From a virus (lineage: Duplodnaviria > Heunggongvirae > Uroviricota > Caudoviricetes), in the IMG/VR virus record IMGVR_UViG_3300001149_000098: a DNA stretch of 4,918 nt; one strand, given 5' to 3'. Below the pieces are notes generated by a model that worked only from the letters and a program-made list of their open reading frames with translations, was not told the DNA's origin and searched no databases. The position numbers and the translations under genes are program-made. This document shows, piece by piece, positions 1-4,918 of this stretch. Within the stretch, counting starts at the first letter, position 1. Each line of letters opens with the position of its first letter.

Positions 1-1215
1 ATGAAGATCGTAAAGGCTGAAGTTTTTGTTACCTGTCCGGGGCGTAATTTCGTCACATTAAAAATCACCACTGAGGACGGTATTACGGGCCTTGGGGATG
101 CCACCCTCAATGGACGTGAGCTTTCCGTGGCCTCTTATTTGCAGGATCACCTTTGTCCGCAGCTTATTGGTCGCGATGCGCACCGTATCGAAGATATCTG
201 GCAGTTTTTCTATAAAGGTGCTTACTGGCGTCGCGGTCCGGTTACGATGTCGGCCATTTCAGCGGTTGATATGGCGCTGTGGGATATTAAAGCCAAAGCT
301 GCCAACATGCCGCTTTACCAGTTACTCGGCGGCGCGTCTCGTGAAGGGGTGATGGTTTATTGCCATACCACCGGTCACAGTATTGATGAAGCTCTGGATG
401 ATTATGCCCGTCATCAGGAGCTGGGATTCAAAGCCATCCGCGTGCAGTGCGGAATCCCTGGTATGAAAACCACCTACGGCATGTCGAAAGGTAAAGGTCT
501 GGCTTATGAACCCGCAACCAAAGGACAGTGGCCGGAAGAGCAGCTGTGGTCGACGGAGAAATACCTCGATTTCATGCCGAAATTGTTTGACGCGGTACGT
601 AACAAGTTTGGTTTTAATGAACATTTGCTGCATGACATGCACCATCGCTTAACGCCTATTGAAGCGGCGCGCTTTGGTAAAAGCATTGAAGATTATCGCA
701 TGTTCTGGATGGAAGACCCGACGCCTGCGGAAAACCAGGAATGCTTCCGTCTCATTCGCCAACATACCGTCACACCCATCGCAGTGGGTGAAGTCTTCAA
801 CAGCATCTGGGACTGCAAACAACTGATTGAAGAGCAACTCATCGATTATATCCGCACCACGCTGACCCATGCAGGCGGAATTACCGGTATGCGCCGGATT
901 GCCGATTTTGCTTCGCTGTATCAGGTACGTACTGGCTCACACGGTCCTTCCGATTTGTCACCAGTCTGCATGGCTGCGGCGCTGCACTTTGATCTGTGGG
1001 TCCCCAATTTCGGTGTCCAGGAATACATGGGTTATTCCGAACAAATGCTCGAAGTCTTCCCGCACAACTGGACTTTCGATAACGGCTATATGCATCCGGG
1101 AGACAAACCGGGTCTTGGTATCGAATTCGATGAAAAGCTGGCGGCGAAATATCCCTATGAACCTGCTTATCTACCAGTCGCACGTCTGGAAGATGGCACG
1201 CTGTGGAACTGGTAA
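1..1215 (+). CDS. rspA: Starvation-sensing protein RspA; enolase-superfamily D-mannonate dehydratase (ManD) family, 404 aa
   Basis: Complete 404-aa ORF starting at window position 1 (ATG) with TAA stop at 1213-1215. The protein is recognised from memory as essentially identical to E. coli RspA; not confirmed by search. Followed 11 nt downstream by rspB, as expected for the rspAB operon. Confidence 0.93.
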
Positions 1216-1219
1216 GGAG
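1214..1219 (+). promoter_or_regulatory. Shine-Dalgarno sequence (AAGGAG) for rspB, overlapping the rspA stop codon
   Basis: AAGGAG at 1214-1219, 7 nt upstream of the rspB ATG at 1227. The rspA stop TAA (1213-1215) overlaps it, indicating an operon with tight translational arrangement. Confidence 0.8.
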
Positions 1220-1226
1220 TAAGATA

Positions 1227-2246
1227 ATGAAAAGCATATTAATTGAAAAACCGAATCAACTGGCGATTGTCGAACGTGAAATACCCACCCCGTCAGCGGG
1301 TGAAGTACGAGTAAAAGTGAAACTTGCCGGAATTTGTGGTTCAGATAGCCATATTTATCGTGGGCATAATCCTTTTGCGAAATATCCGCGCGTCATTGGT
1401 CATGAATTCTTTGGCGTCATTGATGCAGTGGGTGAAGGCGTGGAAAGCGCCAGAGTCGGTGAACGTGTTGCTGTCGATCCGGTGGTCAGCTGTGGGCATT
1501 GCTATCCGTGCTCTATAGGTAAACCGAACGTTTGTACGACACTGGCTGTATTAGGTGTGCACGCTGACGGTGGTTTCAGTGAATATGCCGTGGTTCCGGC
1601 AAAAAATGCGTGGAAAATTCCTGAAGCAGTGGCCGATCAATATGCGGTAATGATCGAACCTTTTACCATTGCGGCTAACGTAACCGGACATGGTCAACCG
1701 ACTGAAAATGATACCGTTCTGGTTTATGGTGCCGGTCCAATCGGCCTGACGATCGTTCAGGTATTAAAAGGCGTCTATAACGTTAAAAATGTGATTGTTG
1801 CCGATCGCATTGATGAACGACTGGAAAAAGCGAAAGAGAGCGGGGCTGACTGGGCGATTAATAACAGCCAGACACCGCTTGGCGAGATTTTCACTGAAAA
1901 AGGCATCAAGCCGACATTAATTATTGATGCGGCTTGTCATCCTTCTATCCTGAAAGAGGCCGTAACGCTGGCTTCTCCAGCGGCACGTATTGTATTGATG
2001 GGTTTCTCCAGTGAACCGTCTGAAGTGATTCAGCAAGGAATTACCGGAAAAGAACTCTCTATTTTCTCTTCACGCTTAAATGCAAATAAATTCCCGGTCG
2101 TTATCGACTGGTTAAGTAAAGGGTTAATTAAACCAGAAAAATTAATTACCCATACGTTTGATTTCCAGCATGTTGCTGATGCCATTAGTTTATTTGAACA
2201 GGATCAAAAACATTGCTGCAAAGTCTTACTCACTTTTTCTGAATAA
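1227..2246 (+). CDS. rspB: Starvation-sensing protein RspB; zinc-dependent medium-chain dehydrogenase/reductase (reported L-gulonate 5-dehydrogenase activity), 339 aa
   Basis: The ORF track opens this frame at a GTG at 1203, but the ATG at 1227 has a strong SD and gives 339 aa (MKSILIEK...). Zn-ADH hallmarks are visible: catalytic Cys/His (GICGSDSH, GHEFFG), a structural-zinc Cys cluster (CGHCYPCSIGKPNVC) and a Rossmann GxGxxG motif (VLVYGAGPIGL). Synteny with rspA. Confidence 0.92.
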   Translation: MKSILIEKPNQLAIVEREIPTPSAGEVRVKVKLAGICGSDSHIYRGHNPFAKYPRVIGHEFFGVIDAVGEGVESARVGERVAVDPVVSCGHCYPCSIGKPNVCTTLAVLGVHADGGFSEYAVVPAKNAWKIPEAVADQYAVMIEPFTIAANVTGHGQPTENDTVLVYGAGPIGLTIVQVLKGVYNVKNVIVADRIDERLEKAKESGADWAINNSQTPLGEIFTEKGIKPTLIIDAACHPSILKEAVTLASPAARIVLMGFSSEPSEVIQQGITGKELSIFSSRLNANKFPVVIDWLSKGLIKPEKLITHTFDFQHVADAISLFEQDQKHCCKVLLTFSE

Positions 2247-2303
2247 TACCAATAACGGCGAGTAAGTAGTACGCATCTTACCTCTTTTTTAGAGATAACC
2301 ATT

Positions 2304-2408
2304 ATGACAATAGAAAAACACGAAAGAAGCACTAAGGATTTGGTGAAAGCAGCAGTATCGGGATGGCTGGGCACTGCGCTTGAATTTATGGATTTCAAGA
2401 GTCATTAG
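2304..2408 (+). pseudogene. ydfJ: 5' fragment (34 codons) of an MFS-family transporter gene (ydfJ-like), truncated by prophage insertion
   Basis: ATG at 2304 with a weak purine-rich stretch upstream. Translation MTIEKHERSTKDLVKAAVSGWLGTALEFMDFKSH* contains the N-terminal motif typical of ProP/ShiA/KgtP-type metabolite:H+ symporters (..G..G...E..DF) and then stops at TAG 2406-2408, at the boundary with AT-rich prophage DNA. Synteny downstream of rspB matches the known Qin-interrupted ydfJ of E. coli K-12 (recalled, not searched). Confidence 0.6.
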
Positions 2409-2440
2409 TGTTAACTATTTGATAAATATTAAATTAATTT
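2395..2440. other. Predicted prophage-chromosome junction (att core region) between the ydfJ stub and the integrase 3' end
   Basis: The host-like transporter reading frame ends at 2408 and the integrase stop is at 2434-2436. The intervening DNA is strongly AT-rich (tgttaactatttgataaatattaaattaattttt) and contains an IHF-consensus-like 13-mer on the - strand (2412-2424). The exact core cannot be defined without the other prophage end. Confidence 0.45.
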
Positions 2441-3728
2441 TTCATTGCTTCGTTATGGGGCATGGTTGGGGCAAACTCGCTTAACTGTGTATTTAACAAA
2501 GCTACCTGTGCATTATTGTTTTCAGACATCCATTTTCCGTATACCTGAAATACCATTTGCGCATCTGCATGGCCCATCTGGTTTGCTATAAATGCCGGGT
2601 TAGCACCAGCTGTCAGCGACCAGCAGGCATAAGTATGTCTCGACTGATATGATTTTCGATGGCGGAGTCCGGCACGTTTTATCGCTGCGTCCCACATCTG
2701 CCTTATTGAGTCAACGGTAAAATGGTCACCATAATTTTTTACTCTCGCTGACACTTCAGGTTGAAAAACAAAGGTGCATTTTGTTTTTCTGTTCTGCCAT
2801 ACTCTCTGAGGTGAACATCAATGATATGCTCTTTGCTCAGTCTCGTTAATGTCATCTGACTCCGGAGAGCGTCGATTGCTGGCTTAATAAGATGAATGAC
2901 CCGATTGGTTCCCGCCTGTGTTTTTGGTACCGTGAAACGGTCTTTTGCTAAATTTCTCCTGATCATCATTGTTCCATTTTTCAGATCTATGTCCTCCCAT
3001 CCAAGTGCACACAGCTCACCAGGGCGAATGCCAGTATAAACAGAAACACACCATAAATTTTTTGCTTGCTGATTTCTGCACGCATCGATAAGACGGATAA
3101 ATTCCTCCCGCGAAAGAGGATCCGGAATGGTTCTTGATTCCTTTAATGGCGAGATCCCCTTAAACGGATTATCTGCCAGGTAACCGTTATCAACACCAAA
3201 CTGGAACACGGCGTTAAGATTTGTCATGTAATTATTTACAGTTACAGCCGATCTCCCTGGTTGTGTAACAATATAGTTACTTTTGGGGATCTGGTATCCA
3301 GTCAGTAGCTCTTTACGAACCTCCAGTAATTTTTCTTTATTAATCGATGAGGCAAGATTTTTTTCACCGATTATGCTCAGGATATTTTTGATGACGGCAC
3401 GGTATGTGTTGAGTGATGTTTTGGCGACTTCAGTTTCTTTTAGTGCCAGAAATTTTTCAGCCAGTTCTTTTATGGTTAAATCTTGTCGGGCCTCACCAAA
3501 TTTTTCCAGATTGCGTGAGGAGGGAAACTGTTTTGCATAGTCGAAAACACCAGTTTTTATTGCGTAACAAACAGAGGCGCGTAGTTCACCTGCAACGCGC
3601 CTGTTTTTTGCTGTGTCAGGAACCCCCAGATTTTCCCTGACTCTTACGCCTTTATAAACAAACCAGATACGTAATTTCCCTCCATGGTTTTCCACGCCTG
3701 TCGGATATTTCATTTCAACTTCTCTCAT
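2434..3728 (-). pseudogene. intQ: Phage tyrosine integrase (IntQ/IntR-like, N-terminal arm-binding domain), disrupted by a frameshift into 329-aa and 106-aa frames
   Basis: The 329-aa frame (2739..3728) has an N-terminal MKYPTGVE..GKLRIWF arm-binding-type motif, box I Arg (TGIRPGE) and the conserved Lys (PKTQAG). The 106-aa frame (2434..2754) has box II (SRHTYACW) and the His/Tyr nucleophile region (GHADAQMVFQVYGKW). The frames overlap at 2739-2754 and differ by one base. The shift must lie within 2742..2817 and probably sits in an A5 or T5 run (2764-2768 or 2784-2788 on the + strand). The start may be the second ATG at 3713 (MKYPTGVE), which has a better purine-rich stretch upstream. Confidence 0.85.
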
Positions 3729-3747
3729 TAGTTAGTGTGGCTTTTAG

Positions 3748-3885
3748 TCAAGTAAGATGACGTCTTGGTCTCGCTGATGCCTGGCGCTCAATCCAGCGAT
3801 CAATTTCTTCCAGGTTGTAAAAGCATGGACTGTTATCCCATGGCATACCGTCATGAGCGACATGCTTATATTCCCTTCCTTCCAT
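3748..3885 (-). CDS. Excisionase-like small protein (DUF1233-type pattern); 45 aa from the first ATG, with the open frame extending upstream to 3966 without a canonical start
   Basis: Hand translation of the - strand gives MEGREYKHVAHDGMPWDNSPCFYNLEEIDRWIERQASARPRRHLT*, with stop TGA at 3748-3750, 19 nt upstream of the int start in the same orientation (classic xis-int arrangement). The W.EG.EY...DG...FYN.EEIDRWI pattern resembles putative excisionases. The same frame continues upstream as RHVSEEQLIALKGIKKGTLKKAREKSF with no ATG, GTG or TTG. Confidence 0.5.
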   Translation of the reverse strand: MEGREYKHVAHDGMPWDNSPCFYNLEEIDRWIERQASARPRRHLT

Positions 3886-3941
3886 AAACGATTTTTCCCG
3901 GGCCTTTTTTAACGTACCTTTTTTTATTCCTTTCAGCGCAA

Positions 3942-4448
3942 TTAACTGCTCTTCGGATACATGGCGTTAACTTCTGGCATTTTCATCAACGCTTCAACGA
4001 TATGTCCGTCGAATGTTGCCATGTCTTCCTGCAACAATTCCTGTGCGCTAATAACCATATCAACGGTGATGTTTTCACATGTGTCGAACTTAACCATGAC
4101 AGCGTTCTGTACTTCAGGGGCCAGCTTGTCAAAAGTGACGTTCATCGGATCGGATTCAGTCTCAACCGGGACAAAAGAAGCAGACTCCTCATCCCAGCGG
4201 TTTTCCTGCATATATTCAGCATCCCATGAATCGAGGGCAGGGCGGGGTATGCCAGGTTTATCCTCGCAGACAATAAATTTATAAGCGCAGTCCTGAGCAG
4301 CCGGATAATGTTCCAGGAACTGCCAGTGAAATTTTGCTCGAGCACGGCGTTCGTCGCCAGCTTCAATGGCTGTGGCTACAGCCACAGCGCCTTCTTCCCT
4401 TGTTGCCAGTTCGTCAGGAATAGCGGCGCAAATAAAGACTTTACTCAT
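3942..4448 (-). CDS. Highly acidic 168-aa prophage protein of unknown function (positional counterpart of Qin ydfE)
   Basis: ORF 3942..4448 with ATG at 4448-4446 preceded by GAGG about 9 nt upstream. Hand count gives about 32 Asp+Glu against 14 Lys+Arg, with no obvious transmembrane segment or catalytic motif. It lies between ydfD and the xis-like ORF, co-oriented with the dicB operon. Confidence 0.65.
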   Translation of the reverse strand: MSKVFICAAIPDELATREEGAVAVATAIEAGDERRARAKFHWQFLEHYPAAQDCAYKFIVCEDKPGIPRPALDSWDAEYMQENRWDEESASFVPVETESDPMNVTFDKLAPEVQNAVMVKFDTCENITVDMVISAQELLQEDMATFDGHIVEALMKMPEVNAMYPKSS

Positions 4449-4541
4449 TTTGTTTTAACCTCATGACAGATTTAAGGATGAACAAATCCCTGCCATTGCT
4501 GGCATATAAGAATGAAACCGGATATTTATTACGGAACTGTT

Positions 4542-4733
4542 TTAAAGACCTGCCGGGATTTCGATATTATCCTGGTGAATAACTTTATCGACCGGGTAAC
4601 AGTTACCGGGAATTTTCTGTTCGGTTGCTGCAGTCATACACTCCTGCATTGTCCTGTGAACACTGTCTGCAATATCAACTGGCTCTCCGGAAACAAGAAA
4701 AACTGTCAGAACAAGCGCAAATGCTGAATTCAT
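4542..4733 (-). CDS. ydfD: Qin-prophage small lysis protein YdfD, 63 aa, with N-terminal hydrophobic segment
   Basis: The ORF track gives an 81-aa frame (4542..4787). The ATG at 4733-4731 (MNSAFALVLTVFLVSGEPV...) is preceded by AAGGA about 8 nt upstream and yields 63 aa, the known size of YdfD. Its start overlaps the dicB stop as ATGA. The N-terminal hydrophobic stretch fits a membrane-acting lysis protein. Confidence 0.7.
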   Translation of the reverse strand: MNSAFALVLTVFLVSGEPVDIADSVHRTMQECMTAATEQKIPGNCYPVDKVIHQDNIEIPAGL

Positions 4734-4918
4734 TGTGTACATCCTTTTGGCATCAGACGTAAACGAGCCAGCATTGAAACAATGCATATTTTATTTAATA
4801 GCTCCCGTTCTTGTTTTCTCTTGTTAATGGCATCTTCAGTAAATACAGGGTTACTGATAGTGACACCAATTTCAAAACAACCTTCAGACGTATTAACGTT
4901 TGGTAATAACGTTTTCAT
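4730..4918 (-). CDS. dicB: Cell-division inhibitor DicB (MinC-dependent), 62 aa
   Basis: 62-aa ORF starting with ATG at 4918-4916 (the window edge) and ending at TGA 4732-4730. The sequence MKTLLPNVNTSEGCFEIGVTISNPVF... is recognised from memory as DicB; size and position immediately upstream of ydfD match the Qin dicB operon. The upstream dicF sRNA would lie beyond the window. Confidence 0.75.
   Translation of the reverse strand: MKTLLPNVNTSEGCFEIGVTISNPVFTEDAINKRKQERELLNKICIVSMLARLRLMPKGCTQ

Follow-up and report, generated by a model that had tools for sequence, protein, structure and literature searches.

How a stretch of DNA classed as viral comes to begin with two bacterial genes of sugar-acid catabolism, and what became of the transporter gene whose start lies where host and phage sequence meet, are the questions raised by the locus described here. 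The window, that is, the whole stretch of 4,918 nt that was analysed, is 100% identical to the genome of E. coli B (BL21(DE3) and REL606), where its genes are annotated as described below. It very probably represents attL of an E. coli B prophage of the lambdoid Qin/mEp460 type, which splits the transporter gene ydfJ from rspAB. The junction is already known from the annotation of K-12 and from a number of papers, and the preliminary description of it is correct. Qin has been reported to occupy the 5' end of ydfJ, depriving the gene of its promoter and of 28 codons (PMC6379469), and to separate rspR from rspAB (PMC8249747).

Host genes in the window

The first gene, rspA (1-1215, plus strand), encodes a ManD-subgroup dehydratase of the enolase superfamily of 404 aa, which contains both domains of the superfamily, MR_MLE_N and MR_MLE_C (Pfam, E 1e-35 and 9e-46), and matches the NCBIfam ManD equivalog over its full length with 744 bits against a cut-off of 550. 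The RefSeq annotation agrees with this call and PDB entry 4IL2 is essentially identical to the product (E 7e-290), for which family membership suggests a putative D-mannonate (or D-gluconate) dehydratase activity. Since the ATG of rspA is at the first base of the window, the RspR-controlled rspA promoter lies outside it. The second gene, rspB (1227-2246, plus strand), encodes a Zn-dependent medium-chain dehydrogenase of 339 aa with ADH_N and ADH_zinc_N domains (Pfam), aligning to the NCBIfam RspB equivalog PRK10083 at 1-339 of 339 positions (694 bits, cut-off 376) and matching PDB entry 4ILK (E 2e-226). The program-made list of open reading frames begins rspB at a GTG at 1203, the annotated start being instead the ATG at 1227. 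The tight linkage of the two genes, with a ribosome-binding site lying over the rspA stop, is borne out by the sequence, in which the stop TAA (1213-1215) is overlapped by the Shine-Dalgarno motif AAGGAG (1214-1219, plus strand), 7 nt before the rspB ATG.

Downstream of rspB and on the same strand lies the start of the transporter gene, as had been proposed, in the form of a 5' stub of ydfJ (2304-2408, plus strand; ATG at 2304, TAG at 2406-2408, 34 aa) that is annotated in K-12 as ynfP (b4534). It agrees with the beginning of the intact ydfJ of strain 2-331 at each of the first 93 nt (93/93), the first mismatch falling at 2397. A chance open reading frame or an unrelated peptide is thereby ruled out, and the stub is the genuine start of the gene whose remainder lies on the other side of the prophage. 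Codons 1-31 are of host origin and the last four codons, K-S-H-stop, are phage DNA. The preliminary description had given positions 1-2408 for the truncated operon; host sequence, however, stops at 2396 and not at 2408.

The ydfJ product is an MHS-family transporter of the major facilitator superfamily (MFS), the intact YdfJ of strain 2-331 scoring 463 bits against TIGR00883 (cut-off 443), with positions 1-400 of the profile aligned to residues 23-418. The window encodes YdfJ residues 1-31 only, without a Pfam hit and without the 12 helices of a full-length MHS protein, and therefore holds a fragment of a transporter rather than a transporter.

Attachment site and prophage

A four-way comparison of attB, attL, attP, and attR places the 16-nt att core at attL, TGAATTTATGGATTTC, at 2381-2396, within ydfJ codons 27-31 and with an in-frame ATG that corresponds to Met29. 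For prophages in ydfJ, a recurrent prophage site, att sequences of 18-19 bp have been published (PMC8112680). On the left side of the core, attB agrees with attL at 120 of 120 positions, and the two diverge from 2397; attB agrees with the attR arm at 71/71. In the free phage mEp460, attP agrees with the left arm of attR at 118/120 and with the right arm of attL at 68/71 positions; it is thus made up of the attR left arm, the core, and the attL right arm, which identifies a classical integrase-mediated insertion. The attL site itself has a host left arm, the shared core, and a phage right arm, and its break lies exactly at the core, as in insertions of the Qin/PPydfJ type. In a repeat scan around the junction, the inverted repeats returned were all short and of the kind expected by chance, and apart from the core there was no direct duplication; an Rfam scan of the window gave no structured-RNA family at gathering score.

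From 2397 to 4918, and past the end of the window, runs a defective lambdoid prophage of the Qin/mEp460 type, of which the window holds the int-proximal end. The element measures about 16.37 kb in the BL21 annotation, and its segment in the window is 99.0-99.4% identical to the free phages mEp460, HannyBb, Tritos, and PhiR42_1. The presence of a prophage at the transporter stub is confirmed by an integrase, an excisionase, and further phage genes directly after it, all on the minus strand. The tyrosine integrase (2434-3713), whose domains begin 26 nt from the stub stop, is a pseudogene, labelled 'frameshifted' in RefSeq, with the Pfam families Arm-DNA-bind_2 and Phage_integrase spread over two open reading frames; compared with the intact integrase of 426 aa in strain 14EC029, the gene has lost one nucleotide near 2778, so that the reading frame is changed ahead of the catalytic C-terminal region. 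The excisionase remnant xisR (3748-3942), called from the annotation and from Pfam DUF1233, retains only the C-terminal half of that family (profile positions 35-69 of 70), its annotated start being an ATT codon that abuts the exonuclease VIII remnant. The latter (RecE-like/ydfE, 3951-4448) is an N-terminal piece, given in RefSeq as 'incomplete; missing C-terminus' and without a Pfam hit. It is followed by the prophage lysis gene ydfD (4542-4733; DUF1482, E 1.5e-24) and by dicB (4730-4918), encoding a prophage cell-division inhibitor of 62 aa (Pfam DicB, 1-62 of 62, E 3e-40), both also annotated as such. Because the integrase is frameshifted and the excisionase truncated, the prophage has lost the ability to excise itself, and the split of ydfJ is therefore fixed in the E. 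coli B lineage.

The expectation that the insertion removes the rest of the transporter from the rspAB unit is upheld. The missing part of ydfJ, 427 codons that begin at Met29 inside the core, is found in BL21 at the distal prophage boundary (1580299-1581582 of the BL21 record), 16.4 kb further downstream and unchanged in orientation, with attR at this boundary; ydfI and the repressor gene rspR, displaced together with this remainder, follow. The ydfI product belongs to the fructuronate reductase family (645 bits, cut-off 603). Comparison with prophage-free relatives, which the preliminary description had proposed as a check, shows rspA-rspB-ydfJ uninterrupted and followed by ydfI in strain 2-331 and four other genomes (n=5 examined). 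Among 5,426 complete E. coli genomes, the junction is present in about 49% and the intact site in 37%, contiguous attB occurring in 2,009. A query with the full-length ydfJ fragment has a median of one location per genome across the 5,426 genomes, which makes a second complete copy of the transporter elsewhere unlikely.

The phage tyrosine integrase thus recombined attP with chromosomal attB in ydfJ codons 27-31. The exchange left 31 ydfJ codons on rspAB, followed by three phage codons and a stop, and carried the other 427 codons, the operon terminator, ydfI, and rspR to the opposite side of the prophage, at a distance of 16.4 kb.

Transcription across the junction

The best explanation makes ydfJ the last gene of an rspA-rspB-ydfJ transcription unit. 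The three genes lie on one strand with spacers of 11 and 57 nt, and a strong terminator consisting of a 12-bp hairpin and a U-run (-17.2 kcal/mol, z -3.3) is found 7 nt after the stop of intact ydfJ, features by which a single transcription unit is predicted. A weak terminator had been suggested in the second spacer, at 2262-2290 on the plus strand, and if it were a working terminator, rspAB would be a two-gene operon, ydfJ would have its own promoter, and the insertion would leave the rspAB unit unaltered. This is very unlikely, even though the 57-nt spacer does contain a run of six T and RegulonDB-style literature names an 'rspAB operon' in K-12. The candidate consists of a 5-bp A/U-rich stem with two G-C pairs (GTAAG at 2262-2266, CTTAC at 2277-2281), a 10-nt loop, and a T6 run at 2285-2290 that begins 3 nt past the stem, properties with which it fails the terminator scan, where 2262-2290 is not reported. 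The 71-nt region around it folds at -6.4 kcal/mol with a z of +0.30, and 117 of 200 shuffled sequences fold at least as well, so that the hairpin, rightly called weak, is indistinguishable from chance and not credible as a terminator. The same spacer sequence stands in the intact operon, no sigma-70-like promoter was found in the rspB-ydfJ spacer of either the split or the intact locus, the strong terminator is placed directly after ydfJ instead, and the name 'rspAB' was given in K-12, where ydfJ is already split. Readthrough from rspB into the stub, which had been thought plausible, is supported by the expression and translation of the stub in K-12, where its 36-aa equivalent YnfP has been detected as a small protein (PMC6001520).

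The detection of tagged YnfP in the same study, together with the occurrence of the stub in about half of E. coli genomes, could also be taken to mean that YnfP is an independent, functional small protein whose gene is held under selection rather than being a mere remnant. This is highly improbable. Codons 1-31 of YnfP are those of ydfJ and nothing more, and the phage-encoded tail differs between genomes, with the TAG stop of the window being GCG in K-12 and 14EC029 and ACG in mEp460, which yields products of unequal length and argues against constraint on YnfP; operon readthrough alone would account for its expression.

The other half of ydfJ invites a comparable reading. The distal fragment is a complete open reading frame from Met29 and may have residual function, and the insertion could have rewired it, such that a promoter at the end of the prophage would drive the 427 codons, translation would begin at Met29, and the product would be a working transporter under phage rather than RspR control. 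The fragment is intact in 7/7 sampled split genomes without an IS at the locus, its polymorphic codons in seven genomes are 51 synonymous against 3 non-synonymous, and it is retained at a coverage of at least 80% in 5,180 of the 5,426 genomes; in K-12 it is annotated as a CDS in RefSeq, its expression is changed upon DicC induction, and a transporter table gives K+ activity for YdfJ. Rewiring is nonetheless unlikely, as there is no Shine-Dalgarno motif within 5-12 nt of Met29, an in-frame TGA stands two codons upstream, and promoter-like sites near attR occur at chance level (5 found, 4.9 expected). The truncation also takes away the N-terminal portion of TM1, which is conserved (the MHS profile begins at residue 23), and in some lineages the fragment is interrupted by IS insertions. 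Alleles of the split and intact classes are intermingled, some being identical or 3 nt apart, and recent or repeated integration therefore explains the absence of decay more simply. A comparison for relaxed selection on the split fragment gave no sign of it, the ratio of non-synonymous to synonymous changes being equal in 7 split and 5 intact ydfJ alleles, a result that, with the two classes interleaved, fits both a fragment that is still functional and one that was recently or repeatedly split. A broader version, rated as quite improbable, would see in the insertion a regulatory swap, which places the Met29-started fragment under phage or DicA/DicC control and adds RspR-controlled antisense transcription through int, coupling sugar-acid or starvation signals to excision where the integrase is intact. 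The codon pattern just given would fit such a swap, and fits frequent integration and excision equally.

Consequences for sugar-acid catabolism

On the preferred reading, a prophage that splits ydfJ from rspAB, transcripts from the RspR-controlled rspA promoter would still cover rspA, rspB, and the stub and, with no terminator in their path, probably continue antisense into the integrase pseudogene. Full-length YdfJ would not be made, and the sugar acid of the cluster would no longer be imported by the YdfJ route. This substrate is most likely L-gulonate, converted by way of D-fructuronate and D-mannonate to 2-keto-3-deoxygluconate. We take RspB to be the proposed L-gulonate 5-dehydrogenase, the role of L-gulonate being assumed from earlier work, from the family models, and from the pathway of Haemophilus influenzae. 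The substrate assignment of the E. coli enzymes reportedly goes back to two papers of Wichelecki et al. in Biochemistry in 2014, on ManD and on L-gulonate; a full-text literature search on rspA/rspB and gulonate, including CFT073, returned nothing relevant to E. coli. Uptake in split strains would accordingly be altered or abolished, as the preliminary description had anticipated, and other carriers could substitute for YdfJ.

The value of these observations is mainly practical and none of the consequences is new, as they are contained in the K-12 annotation and several papers. K-12, B/BL21, W, and Crooks all carry ydfJ in its split form, and they are therefore ill suited to work on the rsp/ydfJ/ydfI sugar-acid pathway. 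Because of the split, 'YdfJ' phenotypes from K-12 collections concern an N-terminally truncated, promoter-less fragment, and the distance between rspR and its only target in split strains has the same cause.

Comparison with known systems

The closest counterpart is the Qin prophage of K-12 (intQ, b1579), which shares the attB in ydfJ, the core, and the attL arm, with 99.5% identity over the junction. The gene order is also the same, running from rspA, rspB, the stub, and int to dicB at one end and comprising ydfK, ydfJ', ydfI, and rspR at the other, as is the published consequence for ydfJ and rspR (PMC6379469, PMC8249747). The two prophages differ in size (about 16.4 kb in B, 20.5 kb in K-12) and in the manner in which the integrase was lost, through a 1-nt deletion in B and an IS2 truncation in K-12; in B, unlike K-12, xis and the exonuclease VIII gene are joined by a deletion without an IS2 remnant. 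Two nucleotides that differ at 2406-2407 make the stub 34 aa long in B but 36 aa in K-12. The free phages mEp460, HannyBb, Tritos, and PhiR42_1 have the same integrase, excisionase, and att arm (99.0-99.4% identical), and their attP reconstructs both junctions in B. In contrast to the decayed remnant in the window, mEp460 and its relatives are complete phages of 45-49 kb with integrase and excisionase intact.

Rac, at the 5' end of ttcA, and e14, at the 3' end of icd, likewise entered a coding sequence by means of an integrase and a short core that occurs in both phage and gene (PMC6379469). The outcome for the gene varies, however, as e14 carries a duplicate 3' end and icd is kept intact, whereas insertion into ydfJ parts the promoter and the first 28 codons from the remainder, and the gene is not reconstituted because the phage arm provides only three codons and a stop. 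As regards the pathway, the same three-step L-gulonate chemistry has been demonstrated in H. influenzae (PMC5788505). The GulD-UxuB-UxuA system of that organism and the rsp cluster of E. coli CFT073 combine the same types of enzyme, a Zn-dependent dehydrogenase, a fructuronate reductase, and a mannonate dehydratase, beside a dedicated transporter. They differ in the dehydratase, which in E. coli is, by family, an enolase-superfamily ManD protein (RspA) and in H. influenzae UxuA, and in the carrier, which is of the MFS type in E. coli and of the TRAP type in H. influenzae.

Gene content at the interrupted operon

All 4,918 bases of the window are 100% identical to E. coli B chromosomes (REL606, BL21(DE3) and derivatives), and the RefSeq annotation of BL21(DE3) gives, in order, rspA and rspB, the integrase listed as a frameshifted 'Arm DNA-binding domain-containing protein', xisR, an exonuclease VIII gene marked incomplete, ydfD and dicB. 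The assignment of the first two genes to a ManD-family dehydratase and a dehydrogenase in the preliminary description is borne out by NCBIfam and PDB matches. RspA (1-1215, + strand) contains both enolase-superfamily domains, clears the 550-bit cut-off of the NCBIfam ManD equivalog with 744 bits and matches PDB 4IL2 with an E value of 7e-290, while RspB, encoded on the same strand, matches an NCBIfam model end to end as well as PDB 4ILK. The start of rspB is placed at ATG 1227, the GTG at 1203 from an automatic ORF list being set aside. Read from the sequence, AAGGAG at 1214-1219 overlaps the rspA stop codon (TAA, 1213-1215), just as had been described for the rspB ribosome-binding site.

The third gene of the operon is split. 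The 34-codon stub ORF at 2304-2408 (+ strand), described earlier as the start of a transporter gene, is the 5' end of ydfJ, its first 93 nt being identical to intact ydfJ with the earliest mismatch at window base 2397. In strain 2-331 and four other genomes, prophage-free relatives of the kind proposed for comparison, rspB is followed without interruption by the same 57-nt spacer as in the window, then by ydfJ itself, 455 codons long and annotated 'MHS family MFS transporter YdfJ', and then by ydfI. Intact YdfJ reaches 463 bits against a metabolite/H+ symporter model (curated cut-off 443), the profile beginning at residue 23, and YdfI reaches 645 bits against a fructuronate reductase model (cut-off 603). 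The other 427 codons sit apart from the stub in BL21(DE3), on the same strand (record 1580299-1581582): in the orientation of the window they lie about 16.37 kb downstream, where a run of phage genes ends, and ahead of ydfI, ydfZ and rspR, a regulator gene; the rest of the transporter has indeed been cut from the rspA-rspB unit by the prophage. This distal fragment opens with ATG GAT TTC CAG, corresponding to Met29-Asp-Phe-Gln of intact YdfJ, with an in-frame TGA two codons upstream of the ATG and no obvious ribosome-binding site in the sequence ahead of it.

At 2406-2407 the window has TA, with GC in K-12 and 14EC029 and AC in phage mEp460. The TA creates a TAG stop, giving a stub of 34 aa in B versus 36 aa in K-12 (where it is named ynfP), so the stub lacks a conserved phage-encoded tail.

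L-gulonate as the pathway substrate would follow from the family models, from a pathway in H. influenzae and, as a third basis, from work reportedly published by Wichelecki et al. in 2014. The H. influenzae pathway has been demonstrated to run from L-gulonate through D-fructuronate and D-mannonate to 2-keto-3-deoxygluconate (PMC5788505).

Site-specific integration within ydfJ

The mechanism of the split can be read from an alignment of four att sites: the empty chromosomal site attB, the junction attL in the window, the far prophage end attR, and attP of the free temperate phage mEp460, whose integrase region is 99% identical to that of the window. Left of the core, attB equals attL at 120/120 positions, and right of it attB equals attR at 71/71; attP resembles attR in its left arm (118/120) and attL in its right arm (68/71). 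All share the core TGAATT(T)ATGGATTTC (window 2381-2396), in agreement with the 18-19-bp att published for ydfJ prophages (PMC8112680). The T-run of the core has three T in attB and attL and two in attP and attR, which places strand exchange within the 9 identical bases ATGGATTTC. Judged by these junctions, ydfJ was split in the classical way, a lambda-type tyrosine integrase having recombined attP with attB.

Transcription of the intact and split units

The only terminator candidate between rspB and the stub, a hairpin of GTAAG (2262-2266) and CTTAC (2277-2281) with a 10-nt loop and T6 three bases past the stem, had been called weak, and this holds: its region folds at -6.4 kcal/mol (z +0.30), 117/200 shuffles fold as well, and a terminator scan of the window does not report the 2262-2290 hairpin, which is not credible as a terminator. 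The intact locus of strain 2-331 (L002, 6579-6606), in contrast, has a 12-bp hairpin followed by UUUUUAUU 7 nt past the ydfJ stop, folding at -17.2 kcal/mol (z -3.3). With no credible terminator between rspB and ydfJ and a strong one after it, the natural unit is most likely rspA-rspB-ydfJ, closed by an intrinsic terminator, which supports the earlier placement of the transporter in one unit with rspA and rspB. In strain 2-331, ydfI begins 55 nt beyond this terminator and is probably transcribed separately from its own promoter or through partial readthrough.

After insertion, the ydfJ terminator sits 16 kb off, and terminator-like sites on the + strand of the window beyond the stub are at chance level (6 versus 5.0 expected). 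Transcripts from the rspA promoter would be expected to read through the stub and then run antisense to the integrase pseudogene. Epitope tagging has detected the 36-aa K-12 version of the stub, YnfP, as an expressed protein (PMC6001520), which is independent support for readthrough into the stub and its translation.

Decay of the resident prophage

Set against 14EC029, whose 426-aa integrase is intact, the integrase gene of the window (- strand) has a single-base deletion near 2778 (2770-2785) that breaks it into two ORFs before the C-terminal catalytic region. In K-12 it is IS2 that truncates the gene, and the two laboratory lineages have thus lost it independently. The Pfam match of the excisionase XisR (DUF1233) covers the C-terminal half only, and the annotated RefSeq start of xisR is an ATT codon directly adjoining the exonuclease VIII remnant (3937-3955); the abutting remnants look like the product of an internal prophage deletion fusing both. 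With a frameshifted integrase and a partial excisionase, the element is immobilised in the B lineage. At the window's right edge (4542-4918, - strand), dicB, a cell-division inhibitor gene, and ydfD, a lysis gene, are both intact, and the dicF sRNA presumably lies upstream of dicB, just past the window end.

Distribution and allele history

A window-like junction is present in 2,658 of 5,426 complete E. coli genomes (49%) and an uninterrupted attB in 2,009 (37%), the remainder having other arrangements; in some of these the prophage has a more divergent integrase end, Stx2a-converting phages being among them. In a published survey, Qin, the cryptic lambdoid prophage of K-12, was present in 48% of 638 strains (PMC6379469). 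The window match stops early in two genomes, 4 nt ahead of the usual break in B20123 and inside an rspB annotated beside ydfC in Br_178_kylling, as if the junction had been deleted there or hit by a different insertion.

The distal fragment remains an intact ORF in K-12, B and five other split genomes. Among the sampled loci (L003 30300-31583, L004 and L007-L016), split fragments show no surplus of non-synonymous change, with 51 synonymous versus 3 non-synonymous polymorphic codons, and intact alleles have 37 versus 3. Split and intact alleles are interleaved: K-12 has a fragment identical to the intact 2-331 allele, and the fragment of B differs by 3 nt from the intact allele of strain C8. 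Recent or repeated integration would account for this pattern, as would retained constraint; the simplest reading of the interleaving is that integration has been recent, or has recurred, on the time scale of allele divergence. Some split lineages show secondary decay: IS3-family and IS1 insertions lie inside the ydfJ fragment (O145 RM9467-C1, L009 1607-3368; AH62), and ydfI of strain 12689 has an internal stop (L010 2979-3368).

Relation to known prophages at ydfJ

The observation of an operon truncated by a prophage is confirmed and the structural part of its interpretation supported; that uptake would be altered or abolished is plausible. The split itself is already known, and its recognition here is correct rather than new: K-12 annotation shows ydfJ and ynfP/rspB on either side of 'cryptic prophage Qin', and the E. 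coli W genome paper reports Qin at ydfJ in W, K-12, B and Crooks. Shimada et al. (PMC8249747) noted that Qin parts rspR from its single target rspAB in K-12 but not in some relatives, and Nakamura et al. (PMC8112680) described ydfJ as a recurrent prophage site. Fifteen records of Stx2a-converting phages match the att-proximal 340-1,160 nt of the integrase region at 91-93% identity, and a related integrase and att module is thus in use by Shiga-toxin phages.
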